Assembly (NCBI GenBank): GCA_963662625.1
Contig: OY759726.1
Span: 1,376,001 to 1,440,000 of the forward strand
From: Nitrosopumilus sp.
Lineage (GTDB): Archaea > Thermoproteota > Nitrososphaeria > Nitrososphaerales > Nitrosopumilaceae
Reading direction: 5' to 3'
Length of the DNA stretch: 64,000 nt
The notes beneath the pieces are model-generated. The model was not told the DNA's origin and searched no databases. It saw nothing but the letters and a program-made list of their open reading frames with translations. The position numbers and the translations under genes are program-made. Shown here in pieces: positions 6,544 to 35,073 of this stretch (its first letter is position 1; the number at the start of each line of letters is the position of its first letter).

Positions 6544-6547
<4 letters not shown>
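5798..6547 (+). CDS. Metallophosphoesterase (PdeM/ICC-like)
   Basis: ADIHIG, LLGDV, PGNHD, THGH and GHVHP motifs. Confidence 0.85.
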
Positions 6548-9793
<3,246 letters not shown>

Positions 9794-9807
<14 letters not shown>

Positions 9808-10966
9808 ATTCAGGTTCCTCCATCATTTTCCTGAGGTCGTCAAAGACGAACTTGCAGTCGTATGGGCCCGGAGACGCCTCCGGGTGGAACTGCACCGCGA
9901 TGCAGTTCCGCGTCTTGTGCCTTATCCCCTCGACCGTCTTGTCGTCTGCGTTCGTAAACCATAAGTCGAATTCCGAGTCGCCAAGCGACTCCGGGGTGAT
10001 CCCGTAGCCGTGGTTCTGGCTGGTGACGTACACCTGGCCGTCCTCCGAGTTGACGCAGGGCTTGTTCTGCCCGCGGTGCCCGTACTTTAGCTTGTACGTC
10101 TGCATGTCCCCGGCTATGCCGATTATCTGGGCCCCGAGGCAGATGCCCAGGGTCGGGACGTCCTCCTCGATCAGGCGCCTCGCAGTCCGTATGGTCTCGG
10201 CGCACTTTTGCGGATCCCCCGGGCCGTTGCTGATCACCACCCCCTTCGGGCCGTGCGACATCACCTCGTCAAACGGCGTGTCCCACGGGAGCTTGACCAC
10301 CCTGTACCCCATGTCCCGTATGTTGCGCAGTATCGCGTTCTTGGCCCCCGTGTCGATCACCACCACCGGCTCCCCGCCGGTGCCGTATGACTGTTCCTGT
10401 CTGGTGGACACGGCGTCCATGAACTGCTCGGAGTCGTAGTGGGGCGCCTCCCGGAGCCGGCCGGCCACCTCGCCGGCGTCGATCTCAGAGTCGGACACGG
10501 CGAGCGCCGCCATCATCACGCCGCCCGTGCGGAGCTTCTTGGTGAGCTCCCGGGTGTCGATCCCCGATATCCCCGGGACGCGCTCGGCGTGGAGCCACTC
10601 GTCGAGCGTCATGGCCAGGTTCCAGTGGCTCGCCGTAAGGGACAGCTCGTGCACCACCATCCCCCTGGCGTGGATCCTGTCGGACTCGAAGAACTCCGGG
10701 ATCCCGTCCGGATCGGCGGCCGCGGGATCCGGCACCCCGTAGTTTCCCACCAGCGGGTACGTCATGGTGAGTATCTGGCCGCTGTACGAGGGATCGGTCA
10801 GCGTCTCCGTGTAGCCCACCATCCCGGTGTTGAAGACGATCTCCCCGAAGACGGTGGTGGGATAGCCGAAGCCCATCCCGTCCAGGACGGTGCCGTCGTC
10901 GAGGATCAGCTTCCCGAACTTGTTTGCTTGAGTTGATTTCCTGGTAGTTATCGTTACCCTCGACAA
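9794..10966 (-). CDS. carA: Carbamoyl-phosphate synthase small subunit
   Basis: GEIVFNTGMVGY, PLVGNYG, SNGPGDP, GICLGAQ, HRGQN, QFHPEASPGP; exact start uncertain. Confidence 0.95.
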
Positions 10967-34743: not shown

Positions 34744-34840
34744 TGGTGGACCGGGTGGGATTCGGACCCACGACCTTTGCGGGGGCTTTTCCCCTTACGC
34801 AGTGTGAGTGCGTCATCCTAACCGACTAGACTACCGGTCC
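34744..34840 (-). tRNA. tRNA-Val(CAC) with a 20-nt non-canonical intron at about position 44/45; CCA encoded
   Basis: Acceptor stem GGACCGG/CCGGTCC, anticodon stem ACGCA/TGCGT with loop CTCACAC, T stem GTGGG/CCCAC. Confidence 0.92.
34776..34795 (-). other. tRNA intron with relaxed BHB motif
   Basis: UGCG-UA^A-GGGG-AAAAG-CCCC-CGCA-AA^G; removal restores the AGGUC variable loop and a 77-nt tRNA. Confidence 0.85.
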
Positions 34841-34905: not shown

Positions 34906-35073
34906 CTACTTCTTGATGCCCATGTTCCTGTTCTTGAGCCTCAGGTACGGGTTCCTGCACTTCCTGCACCGGGAGGCGTTCACGTCGTTCCTGCACCCGC
35001 AGTTGAAGCAGATCTTCATCACCAGCCTGGCGCCCTGCGCTATCCTCTTCTTCTCGGGGTCGGTTATCGGCAT
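34906..35073 (-). CDS. rpl40e: 50S ribosomal protein L40e
   Basis: Manual translation MPITDPEKKRIAQGARLVMKICFNCGCRNDVNASRCRKCRNPYLRLKNRNMGIKK; absent from the ORF track. Confidence 0.92.
   Translation of the reverse strand: MPITDPEKKRIAQGARLVMKICFNCGCRNDVNASRCRKCRNPYLRLKNRNMGIKK

Follow-up and report, generated by a model that had tools for sequence, protein, structure and literature searches.

The 20 nt that interrupt the tRNA-Val(CAC) gene of this Nitrosopumilus genome are, with a probability of about 0.85, a protein-spliced archaeal intron at tRNA position 44/45, with a short insert in carB as a second substrate of the same enzymes and with a likeness between the two that stems from their architecture. 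Both inserts lie in the stretch of 64,000 nucleotides analysed here (the window), which belongs to a genome of one contig with 1.86 Mb and 63.4% G+C. The case is built from the anatomy of the two sequences, their conservation and covariation, the genes of the splicing enzymes and the logic of the reading frame; that tRNA-Val and carB RNAs are cleaved and ligated, and exactly where they are cut, is predicted from these. As read from its sequence, the tRNA-Val insert belongs to the ordinary non-canonical BHB introns and is kept within a single family, and the carB insert is a credible, rare protein-gene intron.

Anatomy of the two inserts

ARAGORN finds a single tRNA in the 64-kb window, a tRNA-Val(cac) on the minus strand (Table 1), and only one tRNA-Val(CAC) gene is present in the whole genome. 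The Rfam tRNA model (RF00005) matches 34747..34840 with 57.4 bits (E 9.5e-10, model positions 1-71), and its alignment contains a single insertion of about 20 nt on the 3' side of the anticodon arm. The minus strand reads ...ACGCA-CUCACAC-UGCG-UA|A-GGGG-AAAAG-CCCC-CGCA-AA|G-GUC-GUGGG... in this region. The parsing offered by the initial annotation, with 20 nt inserted at 44/45, agrees exactly with the minus-strand sequence.

In the canonical archaeal BHB (37/38 geometry), each bulge is cut behind its second base. In the pre-tRNA, the 3' strand of the anticodon stem, UGCG, would pair with CGCA of the intron and not with its usual partner, forming a 4-bp central helix that is flanked by the bulges UA|A and AA|G and accompanied by the GGGG/CCCC inner hairpin and a 2-bp outer helix. 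Since this central helix competes with the anticodon stem, the precursor would have to refold. The heteromeric splicing endonuclease would cut both bulges, and RtcB would join the exons into a 77-nt tRNA whose variable loop reads AGGUC; the carB insert would be processed by the same endonuclease and ligase. The BHB signal is defined by 3-nt bulges and a 4-bp helix in the cited passages of PMC6379350, and the tRNA-Val site has the 4-bp central helix, the two 3-nt bulges, the flanking helices h and h' and a normal tRNA after excision.

The insert string that was quoted for carB has one match on the minus strand, with 0 mismatches (0 of 100 shuffles match), and the layout of its parts is the same as in the tRNA-Val insert, as had been stated. 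It lies in frame between ...KIGEAGE and FDYSGSQ..., where it splits the conserved motif GEAGE|FDYSG, and it forms the bulges AA|A and AG|U, the helix GGCG/CGCC and the hairpin GCCG/CGGC. Its removal joins GAA to UUU and restores GEAGE-FDYSG. Beyond the insert, in exon 2, the first Pfam CPSase_L_D1 domain is matched only from profile position 21 on. In the carB pre-mRNA, a conserved coding sequence is interrupted, excision would restore its frame, and a 4-bp helix, both 3-nt bulges and the inner helix are present.

The claim that both inserts lack a well-formed outer helix holds for carB but not for tRNA-Val. No conserved outer helix was found in carB outside GGCG/CGCC, and the one in its energy-minimum fold is lost in relatives with A for the G of this genome; the carB insert is a relaxed HBh' form, without the outer helix of the strict definition. 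The outer helix h of tRNA-Val consists of two pairs, AC/GU (A-U and C-G), that are invariant in 19/19 relatives, and the longer outer helix of its energy-minimum fold is lost where relatives have A instead of the pairing G.

Table 1. Window positions of the tRNA-Val(CAC) and carB features, with predicted exon and intron limits.
Feature	Position	Strand	Basis
tRNA-Val(CAC) gene, including intron and encoded CCA end (34746..34744)	34744..34840	-	ARAGORN; Rfam RF00005
tRNA-Val 5' exon, tRNA positions 1-44	34796..34840	-	Rfam alignment; predicted cut set by the bulge rule; intronless orthologues with AGGUC variable loop
tRNA-Val putative 20-nt intron, A-GGGG-AAAAG-CCCC-CGCA-AA	34776..34795	-	Sequence; same place in 19/19 aligned relatives
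tRNA-Val 3' exon, tRNA positions 45-76	34744..34775	-	Rfam alignment
tRNA-Val central helix H, exon strand UGCG (tRNA 39-42, the 3' strand of the anticodon stem)	34798..34801	-	Pairs with 34778..34781
tRNA-Val central helix H, intron strand CGCA	34778..34781	-	Covariation, 19 sequences
tRNA-Val inner hairpin h' (GGGG, AAAAG loop, CCCC)	34782..34794	-	Both-side changes at all 4 pairs, 19 sequences
tRNA-Val 5' bulge U-A|A, predicted cut after 2nd base	34795..34797	-	Unpaired in BHB model; cut from canonical 37/38 geometry
tRNA-Val 3' bulge A-A|G	34775..34777	-	Unpaired in BHB model; cut from canonical 37/38 geometry
carB putative mini-intron, A-GCCG-CUAAAA-CGGC-CGCC-AG, 21 nt, in-frame TAA	9712..9732	-	Sequence; conserved and covarying in 23 aligned relatives
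carB central helix, exon strand GGCG (codons Gly-Glu)	9735..9738	-	Pairs with 9714..9717; 95.5% of cells paired; intron strand alone varies
carB exon 1 (…LPRNESLSKLLVLGSGAIKIGEAGE)	9733..9807	-	Start uncertain: CTG 9807..9805 or GTG 9774..9772
carB exon 2 (FDYSG… to stop), 1055 codons and stop	6544..9711	-	Reading frame; Pfam

Some further observations concern the surroundings of both genes. Beside carB stand carA, a Vps4-like ATPase and a 497-aa frame that has no match in Pfam; no homing endonuclease was found among these neighbours. A look-up of RNA runs that contain window positions 9000-10500 found none. Contigs of unrecorded kind from three runs of one study span the carB insert with no differences and no joint; they are possibly the source of the window itself and so are not independent. 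It is noted that carB exon 1 has neither ATG nor TTG where its relatives start ((M/L)PKNESLKK...), the homologous codon being CTG (9805-9807, minus strand), with the carA stop 11 nt further downstream. Among 24 relatives that were examined, four (L074, L078, L082 and L083) likewise have no ATG, GTG or TTG in the carB exon 1 frame. In the tRNA-Val T loop, UCCGAAU, a C replaces the expected U55 (window position 34765, minus strand), and all 18 aligned relatives have T there. A 55-aa zinc-ribbon frame (CxxC...CxxC) that looks like a small ribosomal protein lies just upstream of tRNA-Val at 34906-35073 on the minus strand.

Resemblance and taxonomic range

The range of the two inserts was surveyed in 401 genomes of the order, the window's genome included; the named CarB loci identify this order as the ammonia-oxidising Nitrososphaerota. 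The counts include genomes G283 (family f1) and G272 (f15), and dropping these shifts any family count by at most 1. With a pattern specific to the exon sequences of this gene, the tRNA-Val intron was found in 88/401 genomes, all of them in family f1 (87/112 without the window's genome), and in 0/288 elsewhere. A looser Val(CAC) pattern, which covers 151 genomes, again places the intron in f1 only and finds intronless genes in G007 (f1), in 7/9 genomes of f4, in 2/24 of f10 and in 1/2 of f18; no tRNA-Val(CAC) gene was found in f15 by pattern search. The intronless f4 genes (8 matches, one genome having two) carry AGGTC in the variable loop, which agrees with the product predicted for a cut at 44/45. 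G007, the single intronless f1 genome seen, has TGGTC at this place. A Val(CAC) gene with a different insert, of 13 nt at 43/44, was seen in family f9 (G091:C5:11810-11853), where a GCUG strand of its own pairs to CAGC.

The carB site itself was found in 333/401 genomes. An insert pattern of 12-42 nt occurs there in 231/401, spread over ten families and absent from nine, and these counts are upper bounds, as the upstream GGNGAR of an intronless gene can match. The pattern is present in 73/112 genomes of f1, 9/9 of f4, 40/97 of f10, 2/4 of f13, 98/111 of f15 and in the one genome (1/1) of each of f2, f3, f8 and f11; it is also recorded in 4/13 of f7, where the matches listed resemble false hits or other genes. 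Each of the two introns thus occurs without the other, the range of carB being the wider. Genus g14 gives an example, with the tRNA-Val intron in 44/47 genomes and the carB insert pattern in at most 14/47.

The initial annotation saw in the shared features of the two inserts a hint of intron transposition from tRNA to mRNA. These features are generic. A BHB is made, in order, of the outer helix, a 4-nt exon strand, a bulge of two exon bases and one intron base, the inner helix with its loop, a 4-nt intron strand, a bulge of two intron bases and one exon base, and the outer helix again. It follows from this geometry that every minimal intron is built from a single base, a hairpin, a stretch of four bases and a final two, which are exactly the features that were listed as shared. 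The global identity of the tRNA-Val and carB introns is 0.62 (0.61 with flanks), and random pairs of the same architecture and composition reach it in 935 of 5000 trials (1299 of 5000 with flanks). The carB intron is closer to the D-loop intron of tRNA-Arg(CCU), at 0.67, so that the comparison with the tRNA introns of the genome, which had been recommended as a check, leaves tRNA-Val at chance level and not even nearest to carB; this test covers six introns under a simple null model.

It is nevertheless possible to construct a shared descent, in which a mini-intron moved in either direction into an NGCG-NA site that pairs with the CGCN strand, and we regard this as unlikely. In both introns, NGCG-xA|A stands upstream, the first hairpin pair is G-C, the loop is rich in A, and a CGCN strand is followed by AA or AG at the end; their 3' parts also converge in some relatives, with CCGCAAA in both. 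Transposition of tRNA introns has also been proposed for the Thermoproteales, where the need for a BHB is thought to define the targets, as put in the cited part of PMC4090602. These similarities are set against an identity that 19% of random pairs of the same architecture attain and that the Arg-CCU intron exceeds, and against the different ranges described above, including the carB pattern in f4, where Val(CAC) is intronless in 7/9 genomes, with the caveat that the Val(CAC) gene of f15 was not located by pattern. Short introns soon lose the traces of common descent, so that similarity at chance level is still compatible with a shared origin. In any transfer, carB would be the older partner, which disfavours the direction from tRNA-Val to carB in particular, and the proposed transposition is not borne out by these comparisons. 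The Thermoproteales case likewise involves BHB introns that spread to motif-forming sites; it rests on very similar introns in different tRNAs, according to the same passages of PMC4090602, whereas for tRNA-Val and carB the likeness is no greater than the architecture requires, and the taxonomic ranges differ, each intron being found without the other.

A broader form of this idea, to which we give a rather slight chance, would treat the mini-introns of ammonia-oxidising archaea as one mobile pool across RNA classes. The older and widespread carB intron, or a similar tRNA intron, would seed NGCG-NA sites, the 44/45 intron in tRNA-Val of the Nitrosopumilaceae would be one of the copies, and introns would pass between protein and tRNA genes by way of the endonuclease and ligase that serve both, reverse splicing being one example of a route. 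The resemblance of the tRNA-Val and carB introns is best read as a shared architecture that fits the same cutting enzyme, and not as the result of copying.

The carB insert as a probable protein-gene intron

The insert is present in 20/20 fetched carB relatives, and in 23/23 aligned rows once three from other families are added. Over these 23 rows, 97.7% of 176 cells in the BHB are paired, and 0/500 shuffles reach the observed covariation score. The hairpin has compensatory changes at 3/4 pairs. In the central helix, variation is confined to the intron strand (G-C to G-U), which is the expectation for an exon strand constrained by Gly-Glu codons. The insert is 21 nt long in 16 rows, 22 nt in four, 20 nt in two and 26 nt in one, so that 7/23 shift the frame, and all 16 inserts of 21 nt carry an in-frame stop. 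With a stop or a frameshift in each copy, no allele can be read through. The claim that carB carries an intron is thereby supported by comparative evidence that is independent of tRNA-Val, namely the 23 rows with their covariation, lengths and stops and the split domain.

There is a very small chance that the insert stays unspliced, with carB translated from a downstream start (GTG at 9597), read by stop bypass or in decay. An open frame of 1017 aa does run from 9597, and exon 1 lacks an ATG or TTG at the start position of its relatives. However, exon 1 of each relative codes for the conserved KILVLGSGAIKIGEAGE, and a start at 9597 would lose FDYSG together with the first 20 or more positions of the domain profile. 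Simple read-through is excluded by the insert lengths of 20, 22 and 26 nt, and the hairpin is kept by compensatory changes. Decay is disfavoured by the persistence of the insert in hundreds of genomes.

The distribution of the insert was also followed in named CarB loci. The closest named relatives of exon 2, with 77-87% identity over 137 aa, are from Nitrosopumilus, Nitrosopelagicus, Nitrosotenuis, Nitrosarchaeum and Cenarchaeum. An insert is present at the carB site in 31/80 named loci, and one incomplete locus has a similar look; all are thaumarchaeal, and the genera represented include Nitrososphaera, Nitrosocosmicus, Nitrosarchaeum, Nitrosotenuis and Nitrosotalea. The lengths are 20-22 nt in the Nitrosopumilaceae-type loci and 21-52 nt in Nitrososphaeraceae and Nitrosocosmicus. 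Among the latter, L084, L086, L087, L090, L095, L100, L104-L106, L116 and L117 have inserts of 26 to 52 nt with an AT-rich middle. The gene is intronless in Bathyarchaeia, in Nitrosocaldus, in several Nitrosopumilus records and in all bacteria among the named loci, and in such relatives GAR-TTY is read directly at the site. One Aenigmatarchaeota record (L140) has an insert of about 22 nt elsewhere in carB, LGSGA|...|KIGEAGE, about 40 nt upstream of FDYSG, and its GE|FDYSG site is uninterrupted.

A genome-wide scan for further mini-introns in coding sequences had also been suggested. The strict mini-BHB scan, which is blind to relaxed helices and to inner parts longer than about 28 nt, gives 23,366 matches in the 1.86-Mb genome, so that the shape of the motif is in itself no evidence and the case for carB rests on conservation and covariation. 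After open-frame and coding-score filters, 43 matches remain in which removal of the insert would connect two open, coding-like frames that it closes; an earlier and looser filter had left 81 candidates, mostly gene junctions. Pfam was applied to 14 of the 43, comprising the 11 best by coding score with an open frame on both sides, two lower-ranked ones and carB. The scan recovers carB as the only one of these 14 that splits a domain, and yields no further case among the 13 others. Five of these are plain gene junctions (ATP-sulfurylase, PGM/L7Ae, Hsp70/DnaJ, PALP and Usp), and eight gave no informative Pfam match.

The carB insert resembles the cbf5 intron of Desulfurococcales and Sulfolobales, which is likewise a BHB inside a protein gene, handled by the tRNA-splicing machinery, with a patchy range and lineage-specific loss, as described in the cited portions of PMC2738675. 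It differs in the gene and in the lineage, which here is that of the ammonia-oxidising Nitrososphaerota, and it is much shorter, with 20-22 nt in the family and up to 52 nt in Nitrososphaeraceae. Splicing of cbf5 has been proven experimentally (PMC2738675, in the same portions), whereas that of carB is predicted from the sequence; the cbf5 gene of the present genome is intronless. By 2009, no archaeal pre-mRNA splicing besides that of cbf5 had been confirmed, according to the passages cited from PMC2738675. No report of a carB intron was found in full-text searches of the article literature. If spliced, carB would follow cbf5 as the second family of protein genes with an intron of the tRNA type, and its intron would be conserved in a large share of the ammonia-oxidising archaea, which are globally important nitrifiers. 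Some of their named genera have members in culture, which makes the carB claim directly testable. It should be mentioned that gene callers which place the carB start beyond the insert miss the conserved N-terminus.

The probable tRNA-Val substrate and the predicted splicing enzymes

When 41 related genomes were searched at the DNA level, 20 of them had full-length tRNA-Val matches, and 19 sequences (L001-L019) were aligned. L020 and G001 were left out as incomplete matches, the former lying at a contig end, and so were an additional copy in G013 and a match at 71% in G006. The insert is found at the same place in 19/19 aligned relatives. In the BHB model, 99.5% of 189 pair cells are paired, compared to 88.8 ± 1.3 in shuffles, none of which (0/500) reaches the observed value, and the pairing falls to 30-55% when the partners are slid by ±1 to 3 columns. 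Both-side (compensatory) changes occur at 5/10 pairs, with a covariation score of 0.312 versus 0.106. All four pairs of the central helix hold in 19/19 sequences, and the outermost one switches from UA to AU or GU; as it tracks the changes at tRNA position 39, it ties the intron strand to the exon. The h' helix has 3-4 bp, and each of its four pairs shows compensatory changes. The columns of the two 3-nt bulges, UA|A and AA|G on opposite strands, stay unpaired throughout the alignment.

That the 20 nt stay in the mature molecule, as an additional variable-region arm that would make the tRNA-Val class-II-like, is scarcely credible: ARAGORN does give the gene without a marked intron and GGGG/CCCC would make a stable variable-region hairpin, but CGCA covaries with anticodon-stem position 39, which is sensible only if the helix forms transiently during processing, both 3-nt bulges are preserved, and the intronless orthologues have a plain 5-nt variable loop. 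We know of no class-II tRNA-Val.

As a spliced intron, the tRNA-Val insert would be similar to the non-canonical BHB introns in pre-tRNAs of Crenarchaeota and Thaumarchaeota, which are short, lie outside 37/38 (at sites such as the D-loop, the anticodon stem and the variable region), have 3-nt bulges and a 4-bp helix and occur in hosts with broad-specificity endonucleases, as characterised in the cited parts of PMC6379350 and PMC5829648. There is no essential difference, and the tRNA-Val(CAC) intron at 44/45 would be one more case of this kind.

Genes for the corresponding enzymes are present. The genome encodes two tRNA_int_endo (PF01974) paralogues, with 104.8 and 86 bits, and an RtcB ligase with 584.7 bits. 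The paralogue of 180 aa has its best matches among crenarchaeal catalytic chains (3p1z_B, 2cv8_A, 3ajv_B and 2zyz_B, E 1e-36 to 1e-43). Its alignment to 3p1z_B is gap-free through the Crenarchaea-specific loop, GYYGKPIGIPKPKP, where lysines occupy the places of both K44 and R46. This loop and its residues, K44 and R46 in A. pernix, confer broad specificity according to the sections cited from PMC3241643. The paralogue of 188 aa is without the triad His by reading of its sequence, and it gave no match to solved beta chains at an E of 1e-5 or better, alpha-type and fused chains being matched instead; we infer that it may serve as the structural subunit of the endonuclease. Like the crenarchaeal broad-specificity enzyme (PMC3241643, same sections), the enzyme of this genome would have two paralogous subunits, of which the catalytic one aligns over its full length and has basic residues at the K44 and R46 positions. 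Unlike in the crenarchaeal enzyme, the second paralogue here is unmatched to solved beta chains.

Other introns in the genome point in the same direction. Rfam gives 44 tRNA matches, and Rfam together with reading by eye was preferred to ARAGORN, which, when introns were allowed, called many false genes whose introns ran to hundreds of bases. By eye, at least five further tRNA mini-introns of the same anatomy were read in the sequences. They include the D-loop intron of tRNA-Arg(CCU), A-GCCG-UC-UGGC-GCGC-AA (17 nt), a 15-nt D-loop intron in a CAT tRNA, and two introns in tRNA-Gln(CUG), one of 18 nt in the D-loop and one of 15 nt in the anticodon loop. The statement of the initial annotation that this cell must process such minimal substrates is well founded in the sole Val(CAC) gene, these mini-introns, the two endonuclease paralogues and RtcB. 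Since the only tRNA-Val(CAC) gene carries the insert, the cell would have to cut and rejoin a 20-nt BHB substrate, which makes the carB insert credible as an intron. The tRNA-Val intron is routine in itself, and its value would lie in this in-genome proof of principle for the processing of a 20-nt BHB substrate.

Two other tRNA genes of the genome have unusual features. At G000:C1:635127-635227 on the minus strand, there is a second tRNA-Phe(GAA)-like gene with a 14-nt anticodon-loop intron and an 18-nt variable region that contains a 4-bp hairpin (GUGU/ACAC), around which no BHB was found. A tRNA-Trp(CCA) at G000:C1:548138-548287, seen by ARAGORN only and labelled Gln by it, has one or more long inserts with box C/D-like motifs (UGAUGU and CUGA).
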